64,000 nucleotides of DNA from Amoebophrya sp. A120 (Eukaryota; Protista; Dinoflagellata): positions 4,543,694 through 4,607,693 of the forward strand of contig CAJINV010000002.1 in the NCBI GenBank assembly GCA_905178155.1. Direction: 5' to 3'. The translations under genes and the position numbers were made by a program. Below are positions 2,314 through 63,717 of this stretch, piece by piece. The notes under the pieces are model-generated. The model was not told where the DNA came from and searched no databases. It saw only the letters and a program-made list of their open reading frames with translations. The number at the start of each line of letters is the position of its first letter. Within the stretch, counting starts at the first letter, position 1.

Positions 2314-5300
2314 TATGCAATACAAATTTCCCGAAGATCAAGATGTTGATGTACAAGATGCATCACAAATTTCGTGTAAAACTTGTCATGCTAAACTAGC
2401 AAAGAAGAAAAGTTTTGCCATGTAGAGACCGCATTTGTACGTGTACGGGAAATTTACTGTGGATAATCACGATCATGAACATGATGCTGATAAGCCCCAC
2501 CGACCTACCGTTACTGACCGGATGGCAGAGGTCGAGGCCCGATGGGGGCAGAAACATCAACATGGCCGAGATGATCTCGCAAATAAAATCGGGGAAGATC
2601 CTGATGATGATGCTGGCGCAACTGGTGATGAAGATGACGATACCGATTCGCAGGAAGTACCGACCACAAGCAGAGGACATGTAGAGCACCTTCACATAGA
2701 TGAAGAGGGTGACGGGGTCGTAGACGTTTCGCTGATATCCTGTGCAAAAGTATCTGATACTCGTATTGCAGTCATGCGTTGCAAATCATTTTCTTTTTCT
2801 TAAGGTGCAAAGGCATTACAAATTTCATTTCTCATGCTGAGGAAATTTGTATATGCATTTATACATTCAAACACGATACTTTTGCAAAAATCCATAGCTA
2901 ACTAGGCAGCAGCTGCGCAACTTGCTAGCTGGAAAGGAAAGAAATGCAGAGGAAGATGATGAAGAAGATCATGCTTCTCATGACCCACGTCGTTATTTGC
3001 ATTTGCGCGATGGCGATAAAAAACAAACAAAGCGGGACAAGAGTCTCCGGGAGTTTATAAGCCGGGAGGATCTTATTTCAGCAGTATCGGACGAAGAAGT
3101 GAAAAACGAAGAGCAAAAAAGAAAAACGACTAGACAAACTCAGGTTGAAAATAAAGATAAAGAACCTCCACAAGAAGTAGCAGGAGAAATAAATCAACTT
3201 CTAGTACAACCAGTCGAAACAACAACATCCTCAGCTGAAGGTGCGACTTCCTCGGTAGGAGGTCTTGACAGCGAAGAGGAAGAAATTCTCGCTCCAGACG
3301 GCAGAGGGACTGAAGTCCTCGGGGTCATTCCAGCGGGGGAAGAAGTAGAGGACCAACTGCTAGCAGATGAGCAGTTTGCCGCTGCGTCCGTAGTTCCAGT
3401 TCCCGTGCAGGGGCCAGGGGAACAAATGAGTACGCAGGCTTCTCCTGCGATTCCTGTCACTGATGTGAAGAACGACCTAGATACAGCAGCAGGCCCGATA
3501 TTTTCATCAACGCCACCTAGTAGCAGAAGTACAACTACTGCGAGTAATGATAACATCGTCCACGACGTTGAGGACCCGGCGGTTGCCGGAGGCGACGTAC
3601 TAGCGCAGCAAAATATAGAACAAGAACACGCGCCGCCATCATCATCTTCACAGGAAGAAGCTTCTTCTGCAGCTGCGACGACATCGGGTCGTATTGCAAA
3701 AACATCAATAAATACCGATAGCACTAGCACACTTGATGAAAAAGAAAATCCGGAGCAGCAGGTCCAAATAAAGCATGAGAACAACGACCTCCGCGGCGAA
3801 GCGGTAGAAGGAGTAGCAACGATAGTGGCCCATGAAGATGATGTCGCACCAGCAGAACAGCCGGCGCAAGAACTAGTACCTGAACCAGCAGCAAAAGCCT
3901 CGATCCCGGGGTCCTCCCTCTCGTCCGCTGGCACCACACGGATCCAGGCGGAGAAAGCGCAGCTATTGATGCAGAGACGACAAGCGGAACAGGTGCAGCA
4001 CCAGCAGAAGCGAGAAATAACCGAGAAACGCGAGATGAAGACGAGCTCTAGAAGTCTTGCTTCCAGTGCGACATCTCCAGGTGAAGACGGGAAAATGACG
4101 GAGCAGAATCAATTTGACGAGCAGATGGAACGGGATATGAAAAGCGGGAACGCCGCGACGTTCGGCAACGCGCAAACTTACGACGACCCAACCACGGAGG
4201 AGATCGAAGCGCTAGTGGACGACTACCAATTGAAAAAAGAATTCGACCAGATGTTATGCAATGTAAATTTCCCGTACATGTACAAAATGCATGACAAATT
4301 TCGCTGACTTGCAGTGTCCAACTTGTCATGCTAGACTAGGATTGAAGGCAAGTTTTGTCATGCAGAGACTCCATGTGTACGTGTACGGGAAATTTACTGT
4401 GGATAGATGTACGAAAAGTGCTACGACCCGCAGTGTATGCATTGCAAAAGTATCGTACTCGTTTGAATGCAAATCTTCCATGACAAATCTCGTTCTCAAG
4501 GGAAACCAGCATGACAAACTTGATTTCTCATGCTGAGGAAATTTGTAATGCAATTTACTATTAGAAGAAGTGCGATACTTTTGCAGTTCATACAGTGCAC
4601 TCAGCTGGTGTTCAAAATTATGTGCGGCACGAGGGTGGTCTGCGTGCCAGATGCCAGCACAACTTTCCTCACGCAAAAGCTCGAGGCCGATCGGGCGCGA
4701 TTCAAAGCGAACAGCCTGCTCAAGCCTGGCGCCGGTGGGCCGGGGATAATTATGTCACCGGAAGAGGATTACCAAAAAATGCAAACATGTCCGGGTCTGG
4801 AACAACACCCAAACTTGTGATGCTTCGTCTGGATCATGCTAAAAAAACCTGTATTGCATGACCAGCAAGAGGATTCAAATTTGGCTACGCGGTGGAAAGG
4901 GCATTTATCATGCTGGATGCGCATAGATAAAAAGCGCTCAAAAAATCGGTGATGCTATGGCATACATCACAGACATCATGGACCATGGAAAGTGTGCATG
5001 ACAAACTTGTGCTCTTCCAGATGACTCAGACATTTTTGCATCTGATAAGGATCAGGAATTCAAGAACACCACGCCAGCGGGTCCTAGTTCGTCGTCGTCC
5101 GGAAACGTAAATCCCTTCGCTTTCAACCGCCAGTTTCATCCTAGACCAGAGGACGAGAACCCGCTGGATGTCGCTTTGCTGGATTCACAAACGTATCCTG
5201 TGCAAAAGTATCTGATACTCGTATTGCAGTGATGCATTACAAATCTTTTTGTGAAAGAAAATCAGCATTACAAATTTTATTTCTCATGCTGAGGAAATTT

Positions 5301-8300
5301 GTAATGCATTTATACGAGTACGATACTTGTTCTGCAGCTGCATAAAACGCCTTTTTTCGCCGTGGAGCAGAAAGAAGCGGAACTTCACGACCACGGGCAG
5401 CAAGGAGCTACTTCTTACGCAATGCAAAAGCATCGCAATAGAAGAAATCGCATCACAAATTTTGTCAACATTAAAAAAATAGCAGTGAATTTGTAATGGT
5501 GAATATGGCCACACAGAGGTAGATCTGTTATGCACGATTGCGTCGAGTGGTACTGGTACTCGTACGAGTGCCATGATGCTTTTGCTGTGCATACTTCTGG
5601 TGGAGCAGCCGCGCGCCCGCTCCCGATGGACACCACCATGGAAAAGTTGGCCACCCTCGCGGCACATTGCGAGGCGGACGAACTTTGCACGGCTTTCATC
5701 TCTTTCGACGATGACACGCTGCGGACGCGGGAAGTACCCCCCGCGGAGGTGGCAGAAAAGGAGGAAAAGGAACTCAGCAAAAGAATCGACGAACTGTACA
5801 ACTCCGCATTTAACACAGCAATATCAAATGCAAATATGTCTGGGCCTGGAAACTTGAGTTGCTGATTCTTGCACTGCAGACTGGTCGGTTGTACGGTATA
5901 ACAGCATGACAAGTTATCCTCGCCCCATTGCGGGCTCATTCGTGTTTAGCATGACAAGCTGACTCCATCCAGCACGACAAAAATAAGAATGGTCAATCGT
6001 ATTTATGCATCACAGAGACAGATCTTGTTGTCCCTGAGCTTGAGGTCTCGCAGTACAAATCTAGACCCAAATGACGCATTTGCATTTGATAAGGAAATGT
6101 AGTTGACAACGGTGAGGGCGAGCTGCATTCCTCTGCTTCTACGACTGGTGGAGGGGTGTTGAGCGACATCAAAGATAAACACTCTCCTCAGCCCTTGGAC
6201 TTGCATCTGGCGGAGGATTATCAACTGTAAAAATGTCTGGGTCTGGAAGAGTGTAAACTTGTCATGCAGGTTTTTTATGACCCATGAGGTCTGTGATGCG
6301 GAACCTAGCACGACAGACTCTGTGAGGTCTCTGCCATGCCTATCCTGCATGAGTAGAAACTCCCTCCCAACTCGGTCGAAAGTGGACAGCTTTTGGCACT
6401 CATGCAACACAGATTTTTTCATGATTCGGATTTACCATGACAAGTTGCAATCTTCCAGACCCAGACATATTTGCAATCCATAAGGATTCGATCAAGTTCG
6501 GGGACTTTTTCGATGTCTACGAAGACGAGGAGATATTGGAACACATCCGAAATACTGCGGCACGGAAGCAATTAGCTGTGTCAGATTTTAGGACAATGTC
6601 AAACAGTTTGACTGATGAAGTAACGCAAAGAGGAACGTATCAACGGGCCCCGGGGACCATGGTATGAACTACTGCAAAAGTATCCGATACTCGTATAAAT
6701 GCATTACGAATTTTCTCAGCATGAGAAATGTAATTTGTAATGCGGATTTATTTTAGGAAAAAAAATTGTAATGCATGATTGCAATACGAGTGTGATACTT
6801 TTGCACAGGATACATCGACATGGACGAGTATATATCAACTGTAAAAATGTCTGGGTCTGGGAGAATCCAGCTTGTCATGCTGATTTTGGATTCTAAAAAA
6901 ATCTGTACTGCATGAGCAGCAATAAAGAGAGCCCAAGCTTTGCTACACGGAAAGAGCATTTGCCATGCGGTATAGGCATCAGGAAGCCCTCACAAAATCT
7001 GTGATGCATGGGCACGCATCACAGACATCAGGAGTCATGCAACATGTGCATGACGAACCTGGCAATCTTCCAGACCCAGACATTTTTACATTTGATAGTA
7101 TATCAGGATGAAAAATTATCCCCCCTCTCATATCAAAACGAAGTTTCTGATGCTGGCTCTGCGTTGTACACAAATGAGATTTGTCTTGCTGGCAAGGCTG
7201 CAGCCAGGCCCATATCAAGCCTGCAACACAGAGACGATTTGTGGTCACAAATGAGCAACGCAAATTTTCGAAAACGTACCTTGTCAATACGGGCGGGGGG
7301 GGAATAAATATCCTCGCGATAGAGTACGTGACGAATACAATCGCGAAGGAACATATCGCAGGAAAAAAATGTTTCACTGTAAACTTGTAATGCGCAGAGA
7401 TGAAGGCACCCCATCCCCAGAAGGATTTGTCTTGCTACACATGCAAGACAATGGATTTTTTTAGCTGTCTTTTCCCTTAGGAACCTAGCATCACAAAAAA
7501 TTTTCTCTGTCATGTTGAGCAAACCTGTTCTGCAAAACTTGCAAATCGTTTACAAAATCCTTACAGTGAAACACTTTTTTCTTGCGATAGAAAACGAAAT
7601 ACTCGGGGAGGACGCTGACTACAGAGAAGGTGATGAAAGTAAACGTGAGCCGGGTCGTACATATCCAAGAAAGAAACGTTGTTAGTGTAAATTTGTGATG
7701 CGCAACGTGCAAGATGATTGCGTCTGTCATGCTTGGCATGCATCGTAGGGTCCATTAAAGGGCGTTTTCGCGTACTATCTGCGCATGACAGGTTTTTGCT
7801 GTCATGCCAGACAAATTTGTAATGCTGTTCCTCCAAAAAAGTTACACCTACAATGTTTTTTTCTTAGATAGTACAACTGCCAGGAGTACTAGACGCGACG
7901 TCGACGCTGTTGCGCCGCCCAGCGAGGATGAGGATGACCTTGACGACCTCGACGATTTTATCGCAAGAAAAAACTGTTTCACTGTGAACTTGTGATGCAG
8001 AAAATGGATCGCAGAAGTGTGTGTCATCTACACATGCAAGACAGTGGATTTCTAGCTGTGTCTTCCCCGCCTAGGAACCCCGTATGACAGATTTTCAGTG
8101 TCATGCGGAACAAACTTGTGATGCAGATTTTGCAAAATCACCACAGTGAAGCAGTTTTTTCGTGGGATAGATTTGGACGAGGAAAAAGAGTTTGAGGAGG
8201 ATTTTCTTTTGTTCGAGCGGGCGCGCAACGCAGTGGGTCTCCCCATTGGCTGTCCGTTGGACTCGGGCGCGCTCATCATTGCCTCTATGCCCACCATATC

Positions 8301-11300
8301 CTGTGCAAAAGTATCGTACTCGTATTGCAATCATGCATTACAAATCTTTTTCTCAAGGTCACTCAGCATTACAAAATTCATTTCCCATGCTGAGGAAATT
8401 TGTAATGCATTTCTACGAGTACGATACTTTTACAGTTGATACACCAAGGAGAGTCAGTTTGGCAACACCGCCGGAGCACTCGATATCGATGTGGCCGCGG
8501 CGCAGCTGAGAGCAGAGAGGAACAAAAATATTGACCACAAAGGCAAGGAAGTACAACAGACTGCGCAGCAGGTGGAGCCCGATGGTAGTGCAACAGGAGC
8601 CGAAGGAGAAGATGTTCTTGCTGCAACTACAGCTGCAGCTCCAGGCACTAGCGACAGCGATCAAGACACTGTAGCTGCCCCAGCAATTACCACCTCGGAA
8701 GATGTTGATAAAGAAAAAACATCAGGTGGCTCTTTTCAACAAGAACAAGCGAAAAATCCGTACCAGGGCACGGATGAGCTCCATGCGCTGGGGCCCGAAT
8801 ATCAGCTAGGTTTTGGGAGGTTCAGCTACAGCAAATTTCTGGACCCGTATGCAAAGCAAATGTATCGTACTCCTCGTGGTATTGCAATACAGATTAGCTC
8901 AGCATGACAAATGGAATTTCTCATGCGGATTTAGCTCCAAAAAGAAATCTGTCTTGCATGACTGCGATAATTAGTACGAGTGCGATACTTTTGCAAAGGA
9001 TAACCCGGGGTGGAAGACAAAAAACAAATTGTGTGACAAAGAGGAGCTCCCGTTGCTGCGTGCCCCGCTGAAAACCACAGTGACGGTCGACAGTGTTGTC
9101 TTCGAGAAAACTGCCATGGAGGAGGAGGAAAGGGAGCTAAAGCGGTTCAGCAAAGAAAATGAAAGGGACAAGACGACTCATTCTACATTCACGGAAGTCC
9201 TCCTTGATGAAGTCAAGACAACCAATGCAGCAGCTGCTGCTGCTCACACTGCTTTTCTGGCGGAAGACCCGGGGACTCTGGGTCAAAGAACTACTGGCGC
9301 AAAAACTTCCTCCACTGTCAGCGTGGACGAAGCCGGTGCAGCAAGCCTGGTCGAGATTGAAGACGAGGAGGACGCAGAGTCGATATAGCGTCGTAAAAGT
9401 TGTATTTGACTAAGACCGTAAAAAAATTTTTGCGCGCATTTTTTCGCGGCGCCTATCTAGTAAACCTGTGCACGCAGACAAAAGGTCAATCCCAGTGCCG
9501 TTTATTTTGGCCCGCCTATGCGAAGCGCTTCTCAATAGCTAAATATGGACTGCTGCGGAGGTGAACGATTGCGGATCTGCCTCGGAGCGCCCTTAAAGCC
9601 CCGAGCTGCTTCAGCAGGTCCTCACGCAGGTCAGCGGCTAGGCAATGGGTCTCACTTTGTGCAGGTCGGTCGGAGTCGAGGGCGCAAATGGAACTGCCCG
9701 CGGCTGCGTTTCCAGTTGGTTCTAATGCCGTGCAGCTGTGCGCGCGTGTACCGGCACGCACGCGCGCTTTTTGCCTTTGTGGTTTTTTCTTGAAAAAGCG
9801 AGAAAGCCGACAGCCTCTCGGACGGGGTTCCCGGAGGGGCTCTGGGACCCCTTTTGGGGAGGGGTAGTACCATCGTGATTCAAAGAAAAAAAGATGGGCT
9901 TTTTGCTAGGGTTCCGGGCACCCCTCCGCCCCCCCCTTTTTGTTAGGGTTCCGGAAAGGCCTTCGCGACTAACATATGTGCGCGGAACTCGCTAGAGACA
10001 ACATCGCCAGGGCCTGCGTAGACATCTCTTGGGGCGTTTGCAGCTTCGCATCTTGATCCAGGCCATAGCTGCAAACAGCTGCAGTGGGCGAGCAATCCGG
10101 AAAAAGGAGCGAAGCGTTGTGAGTGCCCGGCGCTTTCTCTGTGAAAGCATCAGCCGCGAAACAATCCTCAGCGCCCCGCCCTCCTCCATGTCATTCTCCG
10201 CATAGCGGGCAGAGAATTGCTTCTGATAAGCTAGCTAAAACAAACGGCGCTCAAGTCAGTCTCTCACTCGCGTGCACGGGTTTAGTAGCAACACGCCGCG
10301 AAAAAATGCGCGCAGAAAATTTTTTACGGCTTTAGCCAAGTACAACTTTTACGACGCTATAAAGCCTGGTCGAGATTGAAGACGAGGAGGACGCAGAGTC
10401 GGCTTTTGATGTAGGCCCTAAAAAATCCATCTCTACGCCCATCTTTTCAAAATTTGCTCTATCGGTTTGCCGCCATTTCGTTGCATTCTCATACATAAAG
10501 CCTCTCGAGCAGCTCGACCGCAGATCCTGGCTGGCGATATTGCCTGACAGATTTTCCGGGTCTTGTTTTTCTTTTTGCAGCTTGGTGGAGGAGTGTGGTA
10601 GGAGTTGTGAGGCCAACTTGTCATGCACATCTCCGCGACATGCAGAAACAAGAACAAAACCGGGAGAATTTTACTGGGTGCGCGCCAAGTCCTGAACCGC
10701 TAGGGGTTTGGGAAGCTGCGCAGAAGATGCGGTGGGCGCTGTTTCCGAATCAGGCCCAAGCCAGGCCGGGGCTGATAAGAGGGGGGGCGCAGCCTTTCGC
10801 TTGGCTGCGCCTTGTGGAGGGTAAATTCGCCGGGGGCATTTTCCGCGTTTGTCGCTATTGCCGGGCGCCTTGCCTTACCTGCGCAAGCAGAGGCGCGCTC
10901 AGGGTCCATGGCCTCATATGATTGGGAGGCTCGTTTGGGTGGCTTTTCTCTTTGGGGTCTTTGGCTTGCGTTTCTGCCCCGGGCCTCGGGGCAGAAATAG
11001 AACAGCCCGGCTTGGCGCGTTTGCAAAGGCGGACGCGCAGCCGCCATCGAAGAGGCGCTACGCGATAATCGGCGAGGGCGCCACGCAATCAACTGGCCAA
11101 AATTTGAAAAGATGGGCGAAAAGGTGGATATTTTAGGGCCTTCATTTGAGATTGAAGATGAGGAGGACGCAGAGTCGGCTTTTGATGTTGATCTCGATGC
11201 TGGTCTTGAAGACATCGCTGAGCAGAAGGAAGAAGGGCCGGAAATACTGAATGAACCACCCGAGCATTCTTCGCCCCCCATGCGTGTATCCCCGACTTCA

Positions 11301-53300: not shown

Positions 53301-56300
53301 ACAATTCATGAATTAGCATCACAAATTTCATCCAGACCCACACATATTTGCAATGCATACAGAGTCCCGGTCGGCCCGCCCCGTCCTGGTACTGGTTTCC
53401 TCCCGGAGTCCGCAGTTGTATGTGGAGGTAAAGTATCAAATGCAAAAATGTCTGGGTCTGGAAGAATCCGAACTTGGGATGCTGCATTTGGATTCCAAAA
53501 AAACCTGTCTTGCAAGACCAGTATAAAGGGAATGCAATTTTGGCCACGCGAAGACGCAAATTTGTCATGCGGTATAGGTATCACGAGGCCCTCAAAAAGT
53601 CTGTGATGCTAGGGCATGCATCACAGACATCATGTTCCATGCAAAACGTGCATAACAAGTCTCAGAATCTTCCAGACCCAGACATTTTTGCATTTCATTC
53701 AAAGAAGGCTTTCGAGGCACACGTGAGCCGGAATTTGAAACGCCAATGGTCCACCGCACATCGGTATCTTGAGAAAAAAGTGTTACAGTCACACTCTCGG
53801 ATGCAAGACAAGCAAGACAGACAACCTCTGTCGTGCAGGAAATGTTTGCCAGCCTCATTTCATGGTGCAGCGTGTTTTCCCTTATAGTCTGCGCATTACA
53901 AGTTTTCTTTATCATGCAGAGCAACTTTGTGATGCTGAAATTACAACAAATGTGTAAAAACTCTAAACACTTTTTTCCTGCGATAATCGGCGGTTCTGGG
54001 GCATGCACAAAGACCTGGGCCGCAACGGGCAGCCAACCGGGGCGGAAAATAAAATTAAGGAGCGAGCGATGCGACGGGGGCTCAGACGTATGCATTGCAA
54101 ATACATCGTAGTCGTACTAATCGCATTCCTGCATTACAAATTTCTTTTTCAAGTTAAACCCCCATTACAAATTTCATTTCCCATGCTGAGGAAATTTGTC
54201 ATGCGATTTTTACTTAGTGCGATACTTTTGCAGAGCATAAGACGACAACAGCAGCAAAATCTACAAGCGACCCAGTGGATGCGCCACATGCAGGAGCAGC
54301 AACCGGCTTATGAATTGCAAAAATGTCTGGGTCTGGAAGAATGCAAGCTTTGTCATGCATATTTCTCATGGCCCATGATGCCTGTAATGCATGACTTAGC
54401 ATCGCAGACTTTTAGAGGGCTTCCTGATGCACCTTCCGCATGAGAAATGCCCTGTCGGTGTAGCACAAATTATACCCCTCTTGCTGGTCATGCAATACAA
54501 ATTTTTTTAGAGTCCAAAAACAGCATGACAAGTTGCAATCTTCCAGACCCAGACACTTTTACATTTGATACAGCTCCTTCGAATACAGTTCAAGGAGGCG
54601 GAGAAGTAGAATCAAAAAACAGCCCGTCTGCAGGAGCCACCACCTTGCTAGAGGTGGAGGAAGATGATGTGAATGCAGATGCAGATGCAGCGCACCAGGT
54701 CGCGTTGTCTATTAATGGCACTACTTCATCAATATCTCCGGCCAGAGATTCTTCTACTCCGCTTACTTCTTCTTCCCAACTGCAACTGGCAGAAAAGGGA
54801 ATCGCCGTTCCGATTAGCGGCGCAGAAAGTGCGGATCAAGACTCATCTGCGGAGATAGAGGACTTTTACCACCAGGACGAGCAGCGCGACCCGACTAGTT
54901 ATGCGAGTGTACAACTCGTCCCCCTCCCCGTCATTTGTACTATGGCATGAACAGCAATACAACCACAAGCACGCGTGGAGCTTATGCATGACAAATTTAT
55001 GTGCCTGATGTAGTATTCTTTGCACAGCTTCCGGAATAAATTTGTCATGCATAAATAGTGACGCAAGCGAGCAACTGGAATTGTGGACTTTGCATGAGAA
55101 ATGAGAAAATGAGAACGAGGGGGAGGAGTTCTTGTGCACTGTCATGCTAGTAGTTTCACTACGTCTAGTACACACATACGCGGGGAGGATCTTGAGGATT
55201 TCATATCCACAAAAAAAAAACCCTCCCCATCCATGTTCGGCATGACAAGCACTGGGTTTCATGCATGTTTTGCATGACAACATCAAATTGGATGGGGATG
55301 GGTGTTTTTTGTCTTAATATTTCACGATGGAGTTGCAGAAGACATATGAGATATGAACGGACAAAATACAATTTGACCCCAGAAAGAGCATTTAGTGCCA
55401 CGAGAATGAAACTAGCGACCTACGAGAATGAGGAAGCAAATGGGGCTCCACCCGCTTACAACTTTTCCCGCTCCGGACGGGGTAGAAGCTGCGCTTTTCA
55501 TAGGGCTTGTGCCCGTTTTTTCGCGCGCAAAGCTACTTGTTTTGCGCGCGGTTTTTCTCCGCTCGAGCGGTCGGGTGGAGAAAAACTGCATTACAAAATT
55601 GGAAAACCAGCCGGATGCAGATGCAGCTTTTCTCCCCGCAGGAGAAAAGCCGCGCCACAAATTCGCAAACTCCGCTTCCTCCGGTTGGAGAAAGTGAAAG
55701 ACCGCGCCTCCGGTTCTCCGCATTACAAATGCGGAAAGGTGGCCTTTCCGCATTACAAGTGCGGAAAGGTGCCCATAGCCATTGCATTTGTAATGCGGAG
55801 AGCCCGACCTTTCAAAGGTCGGGCTCTTCGCATTACAAATCCAATGGGCGGAAAGGTCGGGCTCTCCGCATTACAAATGCGGAGTGCGGGGCTCCCCAGA
55901 GCTCGGGGTTCGGGTTGTGGGTAAAATGGGGAGAGGGGAAAGCCCGGACCCTCGGGTTCTCCGCAACCCGGGCTCTTCTCCGCATTACAAATCCCCCCGT
56001 TCGCCAAAAGCGGCTGCCACAGCCGCTGCACACCGTCGGGCGTAACCTTTTGCGCGATGCTATCCCCAAGCAGCAATATTCGCACTCCCGATAGCATCGG
56101 GCGTGAGGTTATGCTGCATGGTATCGCTGCGTGCGAATTTTCCTCGCAGCCATACCATGCTGCATTAGGTTACGCACGACCTGTGGCTGTCTTTTTCTGC
56201 CCCCCTTGGGCGTTGTGCAGCTTCTTTTTACCCTCAAACACGACCGGACTCCGGGAAAAGTTGTGGCTTTTAGGGAGGAAGCACAACTTTTCCGCGGACC

Positions 56301-59300
56301 ACCCCAAGCCGGCCCCGCGGTGCCTCTTTTCCCGCATGAAACCACGGGGCCGCGCGGGCCCTCATGCAGTCAATGGTCCAAATTCCCGCGGCGTTCGGTG
56401 TTTCGCAAGCATACACCTTCGCAGACACGGCCGATTTTTGGCGTTTGCCGTTTTTGCGCCGGGCCCCGAGGGTCCGGTCGCTAGCAATGAGGGGCCAGCG
56501 CGCGCCTTCGTTGTGTAGCCGGCGCGCTTTTTGTAGCAGGCTGCGTGGCTTTTCGTTTTGTTTTTTCGTTTCTTTTCCTGCTGGGGCCAAAAGAAAGGGC
56601 GCGGAACGAGGGGCGCCGGTGCGCTGGCGGTGTTTCTGGGGCAGCGCCGGTAGCGATGCACCAACCAAGCGGGGGGGGGGAGGGCGCCTCTGCAAAAAGC
56701 GCGACCCGCTGGCGGCTCGATGCCGGCCATGCGCATGCCGGTGGAGAGAGTCTGACGGGCGCACGCATACCATTTGGTGGCCCACCTTGCCCGGGCGACC
56801 GTCCGACGAGGTGTGAAGGAGGCGGGGGCCCCGGCGATTCGTGGGGCAGGGCCACTGCCATGGCAGGCCCAGCGGTGCATTCGCTGTGGCGCACCTTCCT
56901 CAGACCTTCGATCGCGCGCAACCGCGGAGCCGGGGCCGAATGGTCTGAAAACCGGAAGCGGGGGCCCCGGGCCCGATGTTTTCTACATGTTTGGCCGGGC
57001 ATCTTCCGAGCCCACCGTCGTGAGCCCTGTCGGAGGGACCGGGCCGCGGCGGCATGACAGTCTGACAGGCCGTGGGAGATCGGCTTGCACCCACCCCGCC
57101 GGCCTCAACTCCCAGCGCGCGCGCGGACGTTCATTCTTGCCACAATGGGGGCGGTTGGCTTTCTGGGCGGCCCCAGATAGAACCGCCCGCCCGCGTCGAG
57201 CAGCGGCCGGCCACAGCCTGTGGCGATTGAAAAGACACCGCCCGGCGCCCGGGCCTGTTGTATTCAGCGCCCGCGCGGGCCCGCTGCCTGGTGGTCGTCA
57301 GATTGGGAGGCACACACCGGCGCCTTGTTCCTCTCGTTGCGCCAGCCCACATATGTCGTCCCCCAAGCCGCGCCCGCTTCCCTGTTTCTCCCTGCGCGGC
57401 ACTGCCCCAATGCCTCGCGCGGAGCTGCCCGCCGGGCCGGCGTGAGCCGGGTTTGCGCGATTTTTCCGCTCGGGCAAGTGGGATTCGGAACCGCGCCGGG
57501 CGGACCCGAGAAAGAGCGGCGCGAGAATGATTCTCGCAGGGCCTAGCTTTCGACGTGAAACGCCTCTCCATTCTCGCGGAAGCACTACGTTTGCGCGAGA
57601 ATGGCAGAGAATTTCATGCAGATGCGAAGCCCGCCACGAGAATCATTCTCGCGCCGCAAGTTATGGGAGCCTGCCCGCAGCAACCCGGAAGCACACGGAA
57701 AATGCCCGGGGCCTGGGGGAAAACTGCTGGCGCTTGCCAAAAATGCAGCGCGCCGACGGCAATACCGGGGCCGGCCAGAAGGCCAGAGGGAGGGCGAGAG
57801 GCTGCAGGCGCGTGGCGCCCCTCGGGCAAATTTCTGCCCAAGATCTTTCCGGCCGGGGGGCCCCAACGCTTTGCCGAAGTTCTTTTTTCTGAAAATTGTT
57901 CGGCGGGCGCCCGCTCGCAGGATGGGGCCCAGGCGCAGCGGGGCCGGGGGCAACGGCGAAAGCGGGAGGCGAGGAGGCGGGGCTGGCGGATATTGGCAAG
58001 GCCGATGCAGTGGCAGCGCAGGCACCGCCTGCCCACACGCGCGCGCCACAAGCCGTGCCGGCCGGCGGGCCCTGGACATTGTGGCTGGGCTCAGGCGGGC
58101 GCGGCCAGCCTGTTGGCCAGCGGGCAGGAGCCGAGCTATTGCATGATGTGGCCACCAATGCATCTAGTGCCGGCGGCACCGGGGCCCGGGGCCTTCGCCC
58201 TCCGTTGCATGCGCCTGCCCTTCGGTCCACAGAGAAGACAGAACCCGCCGGCCGCGCACACACAGCTTTGGGCGCGCGGCGGCAATTGTCCCGCTCCGTG
58301 CAAGCCCCACCAAGCCAAGGGCTTCGCGCAATGCGCCCAAGTCTGCCGGGGCCGGGGCAACGAGCAGGGAGCGAAAATAAAGGCAGGCGGCGCGCAAAAG
58401 CGGGCCCCGCCCGGTGATTCTATTGCAGAAAAGAAACAGGCGGGGCGCGCCCCGTATATTGCGTTGCCGGGCCCGCCTGGTGTCTGTTAGTCTTCCGCCC
58501 CGATTTGCGGGGGCGGTTGCTGGCCTTCTTTGTGTTGGCCCGCCCTGGTTTCCCGCGTTTTTTTCGCACGACATCCCCGGGTCAAATGTGCACGAGGGGG
58601 CGTTGGCCCTCAAAATAAAAGCGCCGGGCGCGCCGCGGCCTTTTGGGTAGCCTAGGTAGCGAAGAGAATGAACGGCCGACGGCCTCCCATCAATCAGAAC
58701 CCCGGCCCGGGCCCGGAGTAGATGCAGCCGGCGCGCAAAATAGAGAGGCCACTCTCATGGGCGTGCGTGCTTGCGAAACAAAGACAACCGCCACAATTTT
58801 GCGCGCGGCCCCGGCGTGTCTCGCGGGCGCCCCTTGGGGCGGGGCCGGCTTGGGGTGCGTGGTCCGCGGAAAAGTTGTGCTTCCTCCCTAAGCCACAACT
58901 TTTCCCGGAGTCCGGTCGTGTTTGAGGGTAAAAAGAAGCTGCACAACGCCCAAGGGGGGCAGAAAAAGACAGCCACAGGTCGTGCGTAACCTAATGCAGC
59001 ATGGTATGGCTGCGAGGAAAATTCGCACGCAGCGATACCATGCAGCATAACCTCACGCCCGATGCTATCGGGAGTGCGAATATTGCTGCTTGGGGATAGC
59101 ATCGCGCAAAAGGTTACGCCCGACGGTGTGCAGCGGCTGTGGCAGCCGCTTGTGGCGAACGGGGGGATTTGTAATGCGGAGAAGAGCCCGGGTTGCGGAG
59201 AACCCGAGGGTCCGGGCTTTCCCCTTTCCCCATTTTACCCACAACCCGAACCCCGAGCTCTGGGGAGCCCCGCACTCCGCATTTGTAATGCGGAGAGCCC

Positions 59301-62300
59301 GACCTTTCCGCCCATTGGATTTGTAATGCGAAGAGCCCGACCTTTGAAAGGTCGGGCTCTCCGCATTACAAATGCAATGGCTATGGGCACCTTTCCGCAC
59401 TTGTAATGCGGAAAGGTCACCTTTCCGCATTTGTAATGCGGAGAACCGGAGGTGCGGCCTTTCACTTTCTCCAACCGGAGGAAGCGGAGTTTGCGAATTT
59501 GTGGCGCGGCTTTTCTCCAGCGGGGAGAAAAGCTGCATCTGCATCCGGCTGGTTTTCCAATTTTGTAATGCAGTTTTTCTCCACCCGACCGCTCGAGCGG
59601 AGAAAAACCGCACGCAAAACAAGTAGCTTTGCGCGAAAAAACGGGCGCAAGCCCTATGAGAGCGCAGCTTCTACCCCGTCCGGAGCGGGAAAAGTTGTAA
59701 GCGGGTGGAGCCCCATTTGCTTCCTCATTCTCGTAGGTCGCTAGTTTCATTCTCGTGGCACTATATGCTCTTTCTGGGGTCAAGTTGTATTTTGTCCGTT
59801 CATAATATGAGATCCTGGATGGCAGTGCGCGGCACACCGAGGGCGGGGATTGGCTGAGTGATCGGAAATTGTATCACATCCGCAAGCGGTGGCTGCGCAG
59901 TTTGTACACCAGTCAGCAGTGCTTGGAAAACCTCCGGCAGCGAGCGATGCGCATTCACTACGAGAAGTACCACCGGCGCACCCGTCGTGTGGTAATTTGG
60001 TCCGAGCAGCTGAAGCGGCTGCGGTTGAAGTTGAAGCGGTGGGCGCTGCAGTGCAAACAAGACATTCAAAAGGAGCTCACGCCCTGGGAACGGTGGAAAC
60101 TGGAAAATCTGCCGGCGCGGCTGCAAAACTCCTGGCTTTTTAGCGGAGGCAAGCCGCACCCGATGATCGGGCAGAGCGGCGACAACCTGAACGGTATCAC
60201 GCAGGAAGAGACCATGCTGGCGTCGTTAGTTTTCGAGGATGAGGAAGAGTTGAGTATCGGCGTCAGTGGCCAAGCTGTCGGTGCGCATGGGTCTTCGAGT
60301 TCGTTTGCGCAGGCGGGCGAGGCGAGAATGAACTATGAACTGCAAAACAAAGTAACGTACTAGAAGTATAAATTGCATTACAAATTGACTCAGCATTACA
60401 CATTAAATTTGTAATGCGGATTTGCCTTAGCAAAAAGATTTGTAATGCATAAACGCAATTAGTACGAGTACGATACTTTTGCACAGGATATGAACAACGG
60501 AACAACTACGTCCTTGAACGATGAACAGATTTCATCTCCGGATCCGGAAGATGTTCTCGAACAGCCCAAGAAAAAAACACCTCGCCCGGAGCAGGTCGCT
60601 GAGGAGGAAGAAATATCAAATGCAAATATGTCTGGGTCTGGAAACTTGTGATGCTAAAAGGTGGATGCTGGAAACAGTTCCGCATGCAATTTAGCATGAC
60701 AACTTTCCAGAACGCTTTCTCATAAGCAATCCGCATGAGAAACTGCGTGTTTGCATGTACAAAAGAGGCTGCGACTTTTGTTGGTTATGCAATACAGATT
60801 TCCTAGGTATGGAAAGCTAGCATCACAAGTTCCAACCTTCCAGACCCAGACACATTTGCAATCCATAAGAAAATGAAAATACCAGCAGCGAAGACGAGCT
60901 GGAGGGCGACTTATGGAAACGTCAGGATTGAAATCGTCAAAGTTGAAATAGATTGTGATGCATAAAATGCAACCCACAAAGTGCCTGTCTTGCAGAATAG
61001 GCAAGGGAGGCAGATTGTCAGCCTGTTCAGAAGTAGAAATAGAGCTGCCAAGGTAGCATGACAAAAAACGTCTTCCTTACCCAAACAGCATGACAAACTG
61101 GATTTGAGTTCTACCCAAATTTGTCATGCGCCACTTGAAAACTAGGCACCCACTGGTATCCGTTTTATACATCACAAATTATTTGAACTTTGTCGATTTC
61201 GATCCTGACACTACCATACGACTTAGAAGACGACGGTGGGGAAACAGCGGACGCACGCAGCTGGGGCACGCAAATGTGGGAGGTATCAACTGCAAATATC
61301 GATCTGGGTCTGGACGAAAAGTGGAACGTGTATTGCTTGGCTTGCATGCCAGTGAAATCTGTATTGCATGACTAGCAAATAAAATAAGTGCGAGGACTAC
61401 TTCTTTTGTCGTGCAACGACGCAGTCTCTGATGCGCGGTACGCATGAGATAAAAGCGGTTCAAACATTTGTCATGCTTGGCTGCACGCTAGAGGATGCTC
61501 AACCATTGGCATTGCGATCCAGCATCACAAGTTTCCAGAGGACCCAGATGACATATTTGCAATGCACAAGAGGACTACGTGAGGAACCCCGTCCAGCACC
61601 GTGTGCAGCAAGCGGTGGGGGAGGTGAAGCGGTGGGTTATCAAAAGAAAATAAAATCCCCCCGTTCCATACCAAAACGAAGTCTCTGATGAAGGACTTGT
61701 GTACAACTACACCAATCAGATTTGTATTGCAGTGAAGGATTGCAGGCATATGGTAAGCCTGAGTACTAGACGAGGTCTTGACGTAGGCACCCAGCACGGC
61801 AAATGTCTACGCTGTTCTTGGCCCAGTAGCATCACAAACCGCCCGCATACTTACTTAATGCGGCGGAGCCAGCAGCGGCGTCGCCTTCTAGCAGGACAGA
61901 GACGATTTGTGGCCACTAATCAGCATTGCAAATTTTCTGAGGCGTGCCGTTCTGATATGAAAAGGGAGGACTTTCTCTTACGATATGGGTTCCCACCTGG
62001 CTATCCGGTGATCCGCTGCAAGCACTATCCTGTGCAAAAGTATCGTACTCGTATTGCAATCATGCATTAAAAAAAGTAGTGAAATAATTTAAAGATCTTT
62101 TTTCATGAAGCCCGTCACCAAAAGATAATAGAAAAATAGATTTTTTGCCTTTTTGTTAAGGTACATCAGCATTACAAATTTTATTTCTCATGGTGAGGAA
62201 ATTTGTAATGCATTTATACGAGTGCGATACTTATTTAGCAATCCATAGTCGCAGAAAGGCGACAACGCGAATACCCGGGCGCGCAAGAAGAGGAAGCGGA

Positions 62301-63690
62301 AGCTGGCTCGGAAGCTGCAGCAAGAAAAGCTGCGGCGGGAGCAGGCGTATCCACAGTAAAGTTCCCGTACACGTACAAATGCAGTCTCTGCAAGGCAAAA
62401 CTTGCCTTTAATCCTAGTCCAGCATGACAAGTTGGACTCTGCAAGGTAGCGAAATTTGTCATGCATTTTGTACATGTACAGGAGATTTGTCATGTGCATA
62501 AGGCGAGCAAGCAGCGCATCAAGTCGGGCGACTTGGTTTTGCTGGGCAGGACGTCGTATCACATGCAAATATGGATCTGTGTCTGGAATTCGATTGAACT
62601 TGTAATGCCAGGCCTACATTCCCCCAAAGATCTGTATTGCATGACTGACAAATAAACGACGCCACCTTTTGTTACAGACAACCGCAGGAGCTTCCCATGC
62701 GGACGGCGCATGAGAAAGCGTGGTCCGCAAAACTTGTCATGCGTGGCAGCTGCATGGGGAAGTCGAAGTATTTCAGTCATGCACATAATTTCAGCATCAC
62801 AAGTTTATTCCAGACCAAGATCGATATTTGCAGTTGATACGTCGGACCAGCAGACGCACGAAATGCAGGAGCGGCGGCTAAAGAAACACGACGAGGACCA
62901 CATGTACCGGGCGCACAAGGTCAGCTATTGTGAGGAAAAATCCCCCCTCCCCATATCGAACAGGAAATTTGTGATGCCGGATTTGCGTACACAAGTCAGT
63001 TTGTACTGCTAGAAGGGCAAGAGACGCAGTTGTGGCCTTGTTTGCAGGCAATTTGTCATGCTGTCTCCCGCTTCCAGTTGCCTCGTGTCATGCAGAAGAT
63101 GCAAGGCCTTCCCACGCCAGCCAGAACTACAGTCCGCATCTTTTGCCTTCTAGCATGACGACATGACTTGCGGCCGCAAATCAGCGTCACAAATTTCCAC
63201 TTTGAGTTTGGGGTGGGGGGATTTTTCATTTTGATATCAGCGAAGCCCTCCTGACAGAGGCGGACGAGCAAATGTACAAGCAGCTGTTCGGCCACCACTT
63301 GATGGAGGAGGCGGAAGAAGATAGTGCAGACGAGTCCGCCGAGCTGAACGACGCGGTTGCGATGCAGGCGGGCGGGGCAACGGCAACGGCTGCGGCAACC
63401 GCCCAAAATACTGCGGGAAGATTAAAGCGCAAGGCCGAGATATCGTAAGAAAAAACTGTTCCACTGTAAGGATTTTGCAAGTTTTGCATTACAAGTTCAC
63501 TACACATTACAAAGGAAGCTTGCCATGCGAGTATCCTAAGGGAAAACACCACTAAAAATCACTTGTCTTGCATGTGTAGCAAGACAAACACTTCGGTGAT
63601 GCATTTTCTACATCACAAGTTCACAGTGAAACAGTTTTTTCTTGCGATACGAGAAGCTGCGCAAGCTCGTGGAGAAGCAGGTGGCCGAGT
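1939..63690 (+). CDS. Giant multi-exon gene (135 exons, about 18.25 kb CDS, at least 6,084 aa, 3'-incomplete); hypothetical secreted/membrane protein
   Basis: Manual splicing (element plus one direct-repeat copy removed) keeps one stop-free frame. Exons: 1939-2313,2471-2735,2902-4254,4411-4435,4598-4769,5053-5193,5350-5415,5599-5821,6097-6218,6488-6662,6818-6830,7327-7353,7595-7661,7876-7958,8175-8296,8447-8847,9008-9382,10402-10412,11189-11810,12059-12143,12323-12552,12882-12920,13291-13672,13836-13915,14178-14248,14520-14536,14794-14816,15039-15123,15340-15404,15700-15735,16003-16123,16424-16608,16765-16810,16961-16993,17325-17520,17697-17789,18604-18723,19041-19270,19531-19797,19959-20014,20169-20209,20512-20539,20784-20912,21226-21236,21549-21610,21786-21932,22103-22149,22487-22530,22742-22812,23083-23134,24122-24273,24549-24611,24894-25336,25621-25672,25933-25981,26127-26175,26398-26428,26551-26635,26899-27026,27196-27294,27566-27625,27885-27961,28121-28388,28669-28737,28895-28920,29234-29277,29426-29841,30007-30045,30304-30443,30752-31021,31194-31316,31637-31700,31971-32012,32234-32797,36952-36998,37266-37650,37921-37962,38209-38244,38522-38566,38724-38852,39008-39046,39335-39445,39603-39908,40173-40207,40454-40485,40759-40787,41059-41103,41339-41456,41756-41841,42118-42172,42431-42505,42796-42865,43192-43437,43766-43983,44253-44286,44570-44644,44870-45442,45597-45667,45926-45972,46230-46322,46548-46599,46841-47401,47669-47721,48042-48191,48351-48423,48753-48850,49004-49023,49184-49205,49472-49502,49768-49810,50586-50800,51129-51174,51489-51576,51743-51875,52055-52264,52599-52649,52805-53093,53365-53433,53705-53764,53991-54088,54245-54308,54576-54899,55152-55203,55325-55351,59813-60333,60496-60613,60873-60911,61224-61283,61574-61637,61991-62025,62253-62347,62506-62556,62845-62925,63242-63440,63655-63690. 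The exact junction within each repeat is ambiguous. No domain recognised by eye. Confidence 0.88.
2902..4254 (+). CDS. Largest exon; acidic, low-complexity, probably disordered segment
   Basis: Matches ORF 2922-4307 up to the element starting at 4255; rich in E/Q/S/T/A. Confidence 0.9.
4255..4405. mobile_element. Introner/MITE family C (TATGCAATGTAAATTTCCCGTAC...GTACGGGAAATTTACTGTGGATA), about 150 bp, 8 copies
   Basis: DR GATGT here. Forward copies: 2314-2465,4255-4405,16609-16759,28738-28889,48192-48345. Reverse copies: 39446-39597,51876-52049,62348-62500. Confidence 0.95.
6219..6482. mobile_element. Introner/MITE family A (TIR TATnnnnTGYAAAWATGTCTGGGTCTGG), about 250-285 bp, 33 copies; representative shown
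   Basis: TIR plus 5-bp DR (AGGAT here). Copies: 4770-5047,5822-6091,6219-6482,6833-7097,13916-14172,14537-14788,15736-15997,19271-19525,22813-23077,24274-24543,24612-24888,27295-27560,27626-27879,28389-28663,30046-30298,31701-31965,36999-37260,37651-37915,38245-38516,39909-40167,40486-40753,40788-41053,41842-42112,43984-44247,47402-47663,49206-49466,49503-49762,53094-53359,53434-53699,54309-54570,60614-60867,61284-61568,62557-62839. Confidence 0.95.
7959..8169. mobile_element. Introner/MITE group E (TATCGCAAGAAAAAA-type ends, several subfamilies), about 115-250 bp, 15 copies
   Basis: DR GATTT here. Copies: 7354-7589,7662-7870,7959-8169,12144-12317,14817-15033,22531-22736,26176-26392,26429-26545,27027-27190,44645-44864,45973-46224,53765-53985,55204-55319,63441-63649,63691-(runs off the window). 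Confidence 0.9.
8297..8441. mobile_element. Introner/MITE family B (TIR TATnnnnTGCAAAAGTATCGYACTCGT), about 140-180 bp, 30 copies; representative shown
   Basis: DR CACCA here. Copies: 2736-2896,4436-4592,5194-5344,5416-5593,6663-6812,8297-8441,8848-9002,13673-13830,16811-16955,19798-19953,20015-20163,21611-21780,21933-22097,23135-24116(nested insert),25982-26121,27962-28115,29278-29420,29842-30001,31022-31188,32798-36946(nested insert),38567-38718,38853-39002,45443-45591,48851-48998,49024-49178,51577-51737,52650-52799,54089-54239,60334-60490,62026-62247. Confidence 0.95.
9384..10361. mobile_element. Long-direct-repeat TIR element L1 (intronic)
   Basis: Imperfect TIR of about 70-95 bp (TATAGCGTCGTAAAAGTTGTA.../...TACAACTTTTACGACGCTATA); perfect 40-bp DR at 9343-9382 and 10362-10401. 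Confidence 0.92.
10413..11147. mobile_element. Long-direct-repeat TIR element L2 (intronic)
   Basis: TIR of about 45 bp (AGGCCCTAAAA.ATCCA...CGCCCATCTTTTCAAA, inverted copy ending at 11141); 41-bp DR at 10372-10412 and 11148-11188 with 1 mismatch. Confidence 0.9.
11189..11810 (+). CDS. Internal exon, low complexity
   Basis: Frame of ORF 11112-11858; bounded by the long-DR element ending at 11147 and the introner at 11811. Confidence 0.85.
12553..12876. mobile_element. Introner/MITE family D (TATnnnnAGGAAAAATCCCCC...), mostly 310-350 bp, 12 copies
   Basis: DR CCCTG here. Copies: 6831-7321(host of a nested family-A copy),12553-12876,16994-17319,18724-19035,22150-22481,42866-43186,43438-43760,48424-48747,51175-51483(diverged),52265-52593,61638-61985,62926-63236. 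Confidence 0.92.
17521..17696 (+). other. Canonical GT-AG spliceosomal intron (176 nt)
   Basis: AG|GTACTA...TTCCTTTTTTTCATCCAAATTACACAG|G; removal bypasses the TGA at 17534 and restores the frame (IGR YHQW). Confidence 0.85.
17790..18565. mobile_element. Long-direct-repeat TIR element L3 (intronic)
   Basis: 38-bp DR at 17752-17789 and 18566-18603 (3 mismatches, last 27 bp perfect); degenerate TIR (AGCTTGG..CCATTAG..GGTGAATTTCC..TGATTTT and its inverse). Confidence 0.85.
20540..20778. mobile_element. Introner/MITE family F (TATGGSRTTCTCAA...TTGAGAAYSCCATA), about 235-265 bp, 7 copies
   Basis: DR CGAAC here. Copies: 11811-12053,14249-14514,20540-20778,26636-26890,37963-38203,45668-45920,46600-46835. 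Confidence 0.92.
23224..24046. mobile_element. 823-bp foldback MITE nested in a family-B introner
   Basis: TAT...ATA ends, TSD CCTTA, TIR of about 65 bp (AAAAGTACTCAACTCTATTTTTACTCATAGGGCAAAA) plus further internal inverted blocks (CTGCAGGCTTAGCTA; GACTTGCTGGGAG). Confidence 0.92.
24894..25336 (+). CDS. Internal exon, acidic
   Basis: Frame of ORF 24938-25348; bounded by elements with DRs CTTCC and GCGAC. Confidence 0.85.
25337..25615. mobile_element. Introner/MITE family J (TATCCTGAGTAAAAACGTCCCCA...), about 280-315 bp, 10 copies
   Basis: DR GCGAC here. Copies: 15405-15694,16124-16418,20210-20506,20913-21220,25337-25615,31317-31631,39047-39329,41457-41750,42506-42790,44287-44564. Confidence 0.92.
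25673..25927. mobile_element. Introner/MITE family K (TATAACCCGCTCAG...TGAGCARGTTATA), about 255 bp, 2 copies
   Basis: DR GGGCA here; second copy at 42173-42425 (DR GAGCG/GAACG). Confidence 0.88.
28921..29228. mobile_element. Introner/MITE family G (TATGGAWGYGTCAGG...CCTGAC..CCATA), about 305-365 bp, 6 copies
   Basis: DR CGCTC here. Copies: 12921-13285,21237-21543,28921-29228,47722-48036(diverged),50801-51123,60912-61218. Confidence 0.92.
29426..29841 (+). CDS. Internal exon with a Cys-rich patch (WCEDECDPKPSCWTKCFDAVDDYCVHTLITHCC)
   Basis: Frame of ORF 29409-29867; bounded by family-B elements with DRs GGGCT and GCTCT. Confidence 0.85.
32013..32228. mobile_element. Introner/MITE family H (TATGAnAGTGCACAAC...GTTGTGCACTnTCATA), about 210-300 bp, 7 copies
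   Basis: DR GCAGG here. Copies: 15124-15334,30444-30746,32013-32228,40208-40448,41104-41333,46323-46542,54900-55146. Confidence 0.92.
32234..32797 (+). CDS. Internal exon (acidic, poly-Lys, then a Cys-containing segment)
   Basis: In frame with ORF 32500-32829; continues at 36952 after a 4.15-kb compound intron with DR CGCGG. Confidence 0.85.
33090..33418. repeat. Hairpin satellite, first block (about 3.5 units)
   Basis: Unit GGCCCCTAGGCCATGACGCGGGGACCGAGTCCCCGCGCTGGCCTAGGGCTTTCGCCCCTTGGCCGCACGGTGTCCGGGAAGCGC...AGCT. Confidence 0.9.
33419..34606. mobile_element. 1.19-kb GC-rich TIR element inserted in the satellite
   Basis: TIR TCRGTCGGAGGGCCC(C)GGGGC; 6-bp TSD ATGGCG (33413-33418 and 34607-34612) splits one satellite unit. 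Confidence 0.9.
34092..34252. repeat. Degenerate TTTAGCA(GG) short-repeat cluster
   Basis: More than ten TAGCA cores at roughly 12-13 bp spacing; the same word occurs near both ends of the host element (TGCTAAA at about 33460, TTTAGCA at about 34571). Confidence 0.8.
34607..36483. repeat. Hairpin satellite, main block (about 20 units, mostly 92-100 bp)
   Basis: Tandem units each containing nested palindromes (CCTAGGCCA...TGGCCTAGG and CGCGGGGA...TCCCCGCG); a roughly 660-bp, 7-unit higher-order duplication is visible. Confidence 0.95.
36526..36810. repeat. GGGGTRTGTY 10-22-bp minisatellite with inverted copies
   Basis: Repeated GGGGTGTGTC / GGGGTATGT at 36545-36701 and complementary ACACACCCCC / ACATACCCC at 36765-36809. 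Confidence 0.85.
37266..37650 (+). CDS. Internal exon ending in a hydrophobic, possibly transmembrane segment
   Basis: Ends ...MMYTILLSIMEELVFKFALSFVGAAVLL; frame of ORF 37215-37733. Confidence 0.85.
39603..39908 (+). CDS. Internal exon with a second hydrophobic segment
   Basis: Contains GVMMSIGLPVPILTGITWVSVLIAVSVVQNLLM; frame of ORF 39611-39961. Confidence 0.85.
44870..45442 (+). CDS. Internal exon, Lys/Arg-rich
   Basis: Frame of ORF 44858-45499, between two introners. Confidence 0.85.
46841..47401 (+). CDS. Internal exon
   Basis: Frame of ORF 46845-47615 up to the element at 47402 (DR GTGGA). Confidence 0.85.
49811..50555. mobile_element. Long-direct-repeat TIR element L4 (intronic)
   Basis: Perfect 30-bp DR at 49781-49810 and 50556-50585, weakly extendable to about 37 bp; TIR ACGCTT..TAAAAACTTCACT..TAAAAAAAAATTTTTTT and its inverse ending at about 50541. 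Confidence 0.9.
55352..59804. mobile_element. 4.45-kb long-TIR (foldback-type) DNA transposon acting as an intron; apparently non-autonomous
   Basis: TIRs at about 55352-56318 and 58839-59804, highly similar; TAT...ATA ends; 8-bp TSD ATATGAGA; GC-rich 2.5-kb core without a recognisable transposase. Confidence 0.93.
59813..60333 (+). CDS. Internal exon following the 4.45-kb long-TIR element
   Basis: ...QKTYE|ILDGSARH... joins 55325-55351 to the frame of ORF 59869-60363 once the element and one ATATGAGA are removed. Confidence 0.85.
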
Positions 63691-63717
63691 TATGCAAGAA
63701 AAAAACTGTGTAAGTGT

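Follow-up and report, generated by a model that had tools for sequence, protein, structure and literature searches.

Introners of Amoebophrya sp. A120 occur in both orientations and carry terminal bases conserved in the direction of the transcript

Introners and host reading frames in the window

The window analysed here, a 64,000-nucleotide stretch of the genome of the dinoflagellate Amoebophrya sp. A120 (contig CAJINV010000002.1, positions 4,543,694 to 4,607,693 of the forward strand), contains 129 small elements that begin with TAT, end with ATA and are flanked by 5-bp direct repeats (DRs), distributed from position 2314 to 63649. They were located by a scan for TAT...ATA pairs with flanking repeats, followed by BLAST for overlooked copies and manual checks of the boundaries, and fall into 13 multi-copy families plus singletons. 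Their size ranges from 116 to 365 nt, except for two that carry nested inserts. The left terminus reads T, A and T in 128, 127 and 127 of the 129 elements and the right terminus A, T and A in 129, 126 and 119, while A occupies terminal positions 11, 12 and 13 in 101, 106 and 114 of them. Terminal inverted repeats (TIRs) of 8–20 nt or more are present at both element ends, and 2785 of 3528 aligned terminal pairs are Watson–Crick pairs. The DR is exact in 95 elements and agrees in at least four of five bases in 123, and none of the 129 has an exact DR of 6–9 bp. The left DR copies comprise 122 distinct sequences, in line with an earlier note on this DNA, which had called the DRs arbitrary on the strength of CCCCC, CTTCT and GGGGC; these three are real and lie at 38853, 5416 and 18724. 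The motif TTGTNATGC or its complement is present in 124 elements, on both strands (155 and 130), and does not occur in the 20,680 nt of sequence left after excision. Rfam gave no hits within the window, and viral contigs gave no matches to the end motif of family A.

Judged by sequence, the elements match the introners already known from this strain and show no difference in kind from them (Farhat 2021, PMC7789003). According to the text of that paper, A120 introners have an inverted repeat that starts with TAT, continues with about seven variable bases and then a run of three or more A, and have a short DR (3–5 nt) at the exon boundary; the legend of its Fig. S19 names 5-bp DRs. Published introners and window elements share the TAT-starting TIR, the short DR, the occurrence of many repeat families in coding genes and the lack of fixed splice dinucleotides. 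Later work, in the part consulted, attributes the A120 introners to diverse transposons (PMC12130899).

Excision of each small element together with one DR copy, and of five larger inserts in the same way, yields two open reading frames (ORFs) on the plus strand. Host ORF 1 (1903..17533, stop to stop) has 2127 aa after 34 intervals are taken out, and host ORF 2 (17659..63710, stop to stop) has 3994 aa after 99 intervals are taken out, ending at the start of an incomplete element at 63691. All 133 junctions are in frame (there are 133 removed intervals, two elements being merged as one composite), as the earlier note had stated for every case, and read-through would be possible at just 3 of the 133 inserts. 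If the element is removed with 0, 1, 3, 4, 6, 7 or 9 additional bases, the longest ORF is at most 635 aa, and the minus strand never exceeds 355 aa after excision. The ORFs survive only with 2, 5 or 8 extra bases, which the frame by itself cannot tell apart. The boundaries of the end of the 15405 element, of the element at 22531 and of the five large inserts were set after frame breaks had been seen; the first excision pass, before that curation, already gave 2566 aa over 61 junctions.

Mismatches between the two DR copies are about twice as frequent at third codon positions (9.5% vs 4.3% and 5.5%), indicating that the exonic DR copy is under coding selection. Searches with single exons returned no homologs of either host gene, nor a deposited protein belonging to them, and Pfam gave no match at E<0.05 for 11 stretches. 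DRs combined with a hairpin are a classic substrate for template switching. The removal might accordingly be only apparent, caused by reverse-transcriptase skipping across DR-flanked hairpins, or the genes might be dead, a reading to which the architecture of the elements and the host ORFs without homologs in the searches lend themselves. It is, however, hardly credible and already largely refuted by 133 in-frame junctions over 6,100 codons with so few read-through options, by the third-position excess of DR mismatches, and by a PseB-like enzyme from a second sample (described below), whose alignment with intact homologs shows no additional residues at most of the 12 junctions.

Three further observations are recorded here. 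The element at 15405–15694 has both of its last two bases altered (GACG end) and is still in frame. The region upstream of ORF 1 (window 1–1936) contains no introner, as against one every 140 nt or so of exon within the ORFs, which hints at targeting of exons or at selection. A further element starts at 63691 (63691–64000), is broken after about 58 nt by unrelated sequence and is cut off at the window end.

Orientation, splice signals and terminal polarity

Families were defined by an all-against-all comparison of element interiors, which produced no inconsistent edges, and 10 of the 13 multi-copy families occur in both orientations in the window (family A 20/12, F1 11/17, family C 5/3). For family C (F4), the three forward copies (4255..4405, DR GATGT; 28738..28889, DR GGGCA; 48192..48345, DR CCCGA) and the three reverse copies (39446..39597, DR GAAGG; 51876..52049, DR CACCT/CCCCT; 62348..62500, DR AGGCG) listed in the earlier note were all recovered, and two further forward copies are found at 2314..2465 (DR ATCAC) and 16609..16759 (DR TTGAC). 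Compared with the copy at 4255, the reverse copies are 73–90% identical when reverse-complemented and about 60% identical when read on the same strand. The same holds for two copies of family A, a forward one at 49503..49762 and a reversed one at 41842..42112, which the earlier note had described as near reverse complements (87.5% identity as reverse complements, 60.8% on the same strand). The two orientations are not explained by host genes lying on opposite strands: both ORFs lie on the plus strand, and the element orientations therefore differ relative to the transcript.

A second sample was obtained by scanning metagenome contigs with the family A end motif (152 loci, 557 kb including overlaps; “the loci” in the following). 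It contains 439 unique elements; 424 passed the filters on boundaries, and for 325 the strand of the gene could be assigned with confidence and consistently within the locus (114 were dropped); the strand was taken from a codon model trained on the window, so that its calibration on the window is circular. The loci carry the window's families with identities of up to 95%, and window and loci elements were combined into a sample of 454 copies for the analysis of polarity. Counted relative to the transcript, the families of window and loci together show 103/85, 37/40, 20/13, 18/14, 6/5, 6/6, 9/10, 9/6 and 7/4 copies in the two orientations. Two small families, F9 and F12, show a skew of 10/2 and 11/2 (uncorrected p=0.04 and 0.02), which may be chance.

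The earlier note had concluded from the two orientations that removal cannot rely on strand-specific signals. This does not follow, because a TIR shows the same ends, 5' UAU and 3' AUA, in either orientation and can thus carry directional signals both ways. Introners of Micromonas and Aureococcus have been reported to insert both ways while co-opting splice sites (Huff 2016, as summarised in the consulted text of PMC10228655), and Gozashti et al. 2022 searched for opposite-orientation introner copies, according to the portion of the text seen (PMC9860276).

Canonical splice signals are scarce at the element ends. When the junction is slid through its six equivalent positions in the DR, GT-AG can be had at 5 of the 129 window elements, among them the reverse family C copy at 39446, and GC/GA-AG at 9; the loci have 19 and 18 of 325, respectively. 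At the register favoured below, 15 of the 454 copies have GT/GC..AG. Conserved cryptic GT/GC..AG sites are ruled out, as frame-preserving pairs within 5, 10, 15 and 20 nt exist for 36, 81, 94 and 114 elements vs 34, 72, 98 and 113 at random sites. An enrichment of AG in the DR is likewise ruled out (23–37 of 454 copies per position vs a background of 7.6%).

The termini are conserved in the direction of the transcript. Among the 454 copies, 4 have a changed first T and 25 a changed last A, its mirror position (p=1e-4), with corresponding numbers in the window (1 vs 10 of 129) and in loci elements with at least four matching DR bases (2 vs 13 of 307). The polarity is present in both orientation classes (1 vs 13 of 240 and 1 vs 10 of 190) and is lost in element coordinates (11 vs 14). 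Drift after insertion, about 4–5% by the DR mismatches, amounts to about 4.3% per site when taken from first codon positions, so that about 19.5 changes are expected per position. Observed were 4 changes at U in position 1, 5 at A in position 2, 6 at A-3 and 8 at U-2 (all p<0.003), 13 at U in position 3 and 25 at the last A; with a stricter drift of 3.25%, the same four constrained positions keep p<=0.04. The 5' U-A is thus constrained, with U at position 3 marginally so, A-3 and U-2 are constrained at the 3' end, and the last A drifts at approximately the neutral rate. A general strand bias in mutation is ruled out as the cause of the polarity (interior transitions 1314 vs 1261, summed per family). 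Since conservation follows the transcript and not the element, it speaks for a signal that is read on RNA, or at any rate along the direction of transcription, and against symmetric excision from DNA.

Excision from DNA in some life stage or nucleus, similar to that of the internal eliminated sequences (IESs) of ciliates, would fit the symmetric ends, the occurrence in both orientations, the restoration of the exact pre-insertion sequence and the TA termini. A symmetric excision would, however, not yield a constraint polarised by the transcript unless it were coupled to transcription. Paramecium-type IES excision leaves one TA, whereas the window junctions keep an arbitrary 5-mer, and the frame is lost if the element is removed alone or with a single base. 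Besides the window, a separate public assembly contains the elements as well, 12 of them within a single conserved gene, although the loci were selected for carrying elements and empty sites cannot show in them. To our knowledge, no split into germline and soma nuclei is described in Amoebophrya's group. Finally, the text of Farhat 2021 counts 66,565 A120 introns by comparing RNA reads with genomic DNA (PMC7789003). Taken together, removal from DNA is most improbable and removal at the RNA level very likely, as far as sequence comparison can tell.

RNA-level removal could be guided by a hairpin of the two TIRs and carried out by a non-spliceosomal enzyme (cut-and-ligate or euglenid-like) with a small polar preference at the stem base. 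End-to-end pairing is possible in all window elements, with duplex energies of -30 kcal/mol at the median and -11.6 kcal/mol at the weakest; a nested insert of 4 kb does not stop the ends from working, and donor and acceptor dinucleotides are arbitrary. U1 small nuclear RNA (snRNA) was not found in A120, according to the text of Farhat 2021 (PMC7789003), and euglenid nonconventional introns are described with TIRs, DR-like ends and circular RNAs in the consulted part of PMC11282704. One zone of the loci (17–28) has an excess of G.U over A.C pairs (136 vs 86, p=0.001). Overall, however, no consistent excess of this kind exists: the TIRs have 143 G.U vs 175 A.C in the window (17 vs 44 in zone 4–7) and 317 vs 270 in the loci, where the zones disagree in sign, and consensus-polarised substitutions of the G.U and A.C types number 302 vs 293 at TIR positions 9–28 and 1314 vs 1261 in the interior. 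Duplex energies do not differ between sense and antisense (p=0.42 and 0.23), positions 4–7 beside the junction pair in just 54–56% of cases, and stem mismatch (10–19%) equals or exceeds what two copies decaying neutrally would show. These tests, with a mixed outcome for wobble, detected no selection on an RNA hairpin; they could miss weak selection distributed along a 20-bp stem, and a tolerant stem may help to bring the ends together. We consider a hairpin-guided enzyme outside the spliceosome somewhat unlikely. The proposal of the earlier note, recognition by symmetry rather than by U1/U2 pairing, is borne out in so far as no conserved GT/GC..AG is found at or near the ends, the DR is arbitrary and symmetry matters, but selection on the hairpin is undetected and the signals are polar.

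Alternatively, a DNA-binding protein (a domesticated transposase or similar) sitting on the TIRs and subterminal motifs might mark the ends co-transcriptionally for an RNA-cutting machine. The confinement of TTGTNATGC to the elements, 124 of 129 with none in the sequence left after excision, looks like that of transposase-binding repeats. Yet the motif occurs 0, 1, 0 and 0 times in four inserts with long DRs, which appear to be removed, and is missing from a nested 823-bp element; moreover, the needs of transposition alone explain it, and no candidate protein was identified. Such marking is improbable, more so than a hairpin-guided enzyme.

Junction position and larger inserts

The position of the junction can be narrowed down with one of the loci (L126, 143–4428), which contains a gene for a PseB-like UDP-GlcNAc 4,6-dehydratase with 12 introners in both orientations. 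One of its exons is about 50% identical to database dehydratases, one consists of just 8 nt between removals, and an exon is 100% identical to the deposited A120 protein P0001. In-silico excision of the 12 elements gives P0001 at 291 of 292 residues, and the removed length is the element plus 5 nt, not plus 2 or plus 8, at 12 of 12 junctions. The single difference puts that junction 1–4 bases into the DR. At the junction at 61284 in the window, a stop codon rules out retention of the whole downstream DR, and of 147 mismatches codon preference decides 88 in favour of the upstream DR copy; the drift in GC content at DR mismatches gave no information. In Table S4 of Farhat 2021, as far as seen, all nine commonest non-canonical motifs are NT-NN in A120 and TT-NN in A25, whose inverted repeat starts with TTA (PMC7789003). 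The register that fits most of this evidence would be N/UAU...AUA NNNN/ (slashes denote cuts), which, like a standard donor, has U at +2 and A at +3.

Elements whose DR deviates from 5 bp bear on the question of whether the removed length depends on the DR or on a fixed distance. Three genuine cases were found, with DRs of 8, 8 and 41 bp, and a constant removal of the element plus 5 nt keeps each of them in frame. Elements with no recognisable DR are also in frame with plus 5, namely the F1 element at 62026..62247 (plus strand, AGCAC/GTCGC) in the window and those at L036:4379 and L015:8833 in the loci. As a control, 280 loci elements with perfect DR and ends were scored, and plus 5 was best in 177 of the 204 that had coding signal. 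Six apparent 4-bp DRs, three apparent 8-bp DRs (TIR 15–19 of 20) and one internal palindrome were dropped as chance pairings across or inside elements. The element at L068:5095–5374 is an ordinary-sized member of family F3 with a perfect 8-bp DR.

The five larger TIR-bearing inserts of the window have DRs of 8 bp or 27–41 bp. A TAT...ATA element of 4453 bp (55352..59804) has near-perfect TIRs of about 0.9 kb, an 8-bp DR and 14 copies of TTGTNATGC, joins two ORF halves in frame and behaves as an intron. Another TAT...ATA element, of 978 bp (9384..10361), has a 92-nt TIR and a 40/41-bp DR; the neighbouring insert at 10413..11147 has a DR of about 41 bp and could splice in frame as GT..AG at 10411–11150, and the two hit one site in succession. 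The insert at 17790..18576, near the start of ORF 2, has a DR of at least 27 bp and uncertain boundaries, and that at 49811..50555 has a 30-bp DR and GATA at its 3' end without a 5' TAT. The long discrete target site duplications (TSDs, 27–41 bp) of these last four inserts recall IS481EU as presented in the part of PMC10045372 that was consulted. A Pfam search with 24 ORFs from the two largest inserts returned neither a transposase nor any other domain.

Three introners are themselves interrupted or compounded. In the composite at 6831..7321 (plus strand), element 6833–7097 sits in the first bases of element 7101–7321, and taking out the inner element rebuilds the outer 5' end, a stwintron-like layout. 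The F1 element at 23135..24116 (minus strand) contains the nested 823-bp TAT...ATA element mentioned above (23224–24046), which has a 76-nt TIR, additional internal inverted repeats and a 5-bp DR (CCTTA). A further F1 element (32798..36946, plus strand) carries the 4-kb insert (about 32852–36847) and still leaves in frame; the insert is GC-rich, with a 92–96-bp tandem array of about 20 units plus shorter arrays, and its host introner measures 153 bp.

A transposon palindrome as a candidate splice signal

The best model in our view is RNA splicing, likely by an altered spliceosome, at N/UAU...AUA-NNNN/ with a fixed-distance 3' end, to which we assign a probability of about 0.5. The elements would be non-autonomous transposon copies that interrupt exons either way, inserted as DNA by a DDE-type transposase that makes the 5-bp target duplication. 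A modified spliceosome would then read the palindromic transposon ends as directional splice signals on the RNA. The 5' cut, one base before the TIR, would produce N-U-A-U-S, which resembles a GUAUG-type donor with relaxed +1, GUAUG being the yeast donor consensus. The conserved A at -3, the third base from the end of the TIR, may act as a branch-like anchor, and the 3' cut would be placed by measuring four bases beyond the TIR regardless of sequence, so that 5 nt are lost along with the element and the length of one DR is retained. The palindromic nature of the TIR would place both signals correctly in either orientation, and TIR pairing may help to match the two ends, even with hairpin selection undetected. 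More specifically, the Amoebophrya spliceosome may have been rebuilt so that the transposon palindrome is the splice code, with an nUAU donor read without U1, a 3' branch anchor and an acceptor four bases out without AG; this stronger version is tentative, at rather less than even odds.

A number of observations weigh against this model. In the branch consensus yUnAy, the U is present in only about 43% of copies, and no standard spliceosomal acceptor has an arbitrary 3' dinucleotide. Since UA...AU by itself occurs much too often to mark out an intron, the ends must be selected by something else, a hairpin or a protein. The G.U excess in zone 17–28 of the loci also counts against the model. Concerning the register, the codon test ranks k=0 (24.6) over k=1 (17.3), DR position 5 does not favour the downstream copy (14 vs 9 in favour of the upstream copy), and just one junction is placed by an annotated protein, with both the annotation and Table S4 possibly carrying aligner bias. 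The fixed distance is supported by three cases, about 1 in 27 by chance; six further loci elements with intact ends and low DR divide into two clear, three ambiguous and one boundary miscall, and the insert at 49811 obeys neither removal rule.

The element class is already published. The text of Farhat 2021 leaves the splicing mechanism of A120 open while already describing the hairpin idea and the missing U1, and reports U2, U4, U5 and U6 together with most spliceosomal proteins (PMC7789003). In the parts of its text and supplement that were consulted, “orientation” refers to genes only, and no count of element orientation, terminal polarity, fixed-distance rule or 8- and 41-bp DR variants is given. 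Our search of the open literature on orientation or mechanism returned no paper resolving Amoebophrya splicing, and no orientation counts, polar terminal conservation or ruler for these introns.

Comparison with other systems places the elements near, but not within, several known classes. The introners of Micromonas and Aureococcus, as described in the consulted parts of PMC10228655, PMC7789003 and PMC9860276, are similarly derived from DNA transposons, with TIRs and TSDs, inserted in both orientations and with splice sites supplied by the element or the TSD. Aureococcus introners are described there with canonical splicing motifs, whereas GT-AG is available in so few of the window and loci elements (5/129 and 19/325), and GT/GC..AG pairs within 5–20 nt of the window elements' ends do not exceed the random level. 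Nonconventional introns of euglenids and introns of Fritillaria borealis resemble the window elements in their TIR- and TSD-like ends, non-canonical junctions and probable origin from miniature inverted-repeat transposable elements, according to the part of PMC11282704 consulted. The same text describes a conserved stem (CAG/CTG) and circles for euglenid introns and a preference for AG-AC/AG-AT ends with spliceosomal removal for Fritillaria borealis, in contrast to the conserved 5' UA(U) and 3' AU inside an arbitrary flank seen here. The window elements share TA..TA termini and TIRs with the IS3EU/GingerRoot transposons, whose TSD is usually 6 bp in the consulted text (PMC10045372), while the window TSD is 5 bp, rarely 8 or 41, and a search for exact 6-bp repeats gave none. 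A 3' splice site at a set distance from a branch motif, finally, is a property of introns in Trichomonas, Giardia and Yarrowia, as far as PMC2483917 was consulted; these keep a strong CTAAC-type branch motif and a terminal AG, and the window elements have neither.

The data indicate purifying selection, in the direction of the transcript, on specific terminal bases and not on base-pairing, which makes the mechanism directly testable. The fixed-distance model predicts the exact mRNA sequence at 34 junctions with DR mismatches and extra codons at the elements with 8-bp and 41-bp DRs. If the rebuilt splice code were true, elements with TA ends and a target duplication of 2 modulo 3 (5, 8 or 41 bp) would all be harmless introns in either orientation on arrival. 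If the model holds, Amoebophrya would be a eukaryote in which most introns are spliced by means of a transposon-end signal and need no GT, AG or U1, which would explain mass intron gain.

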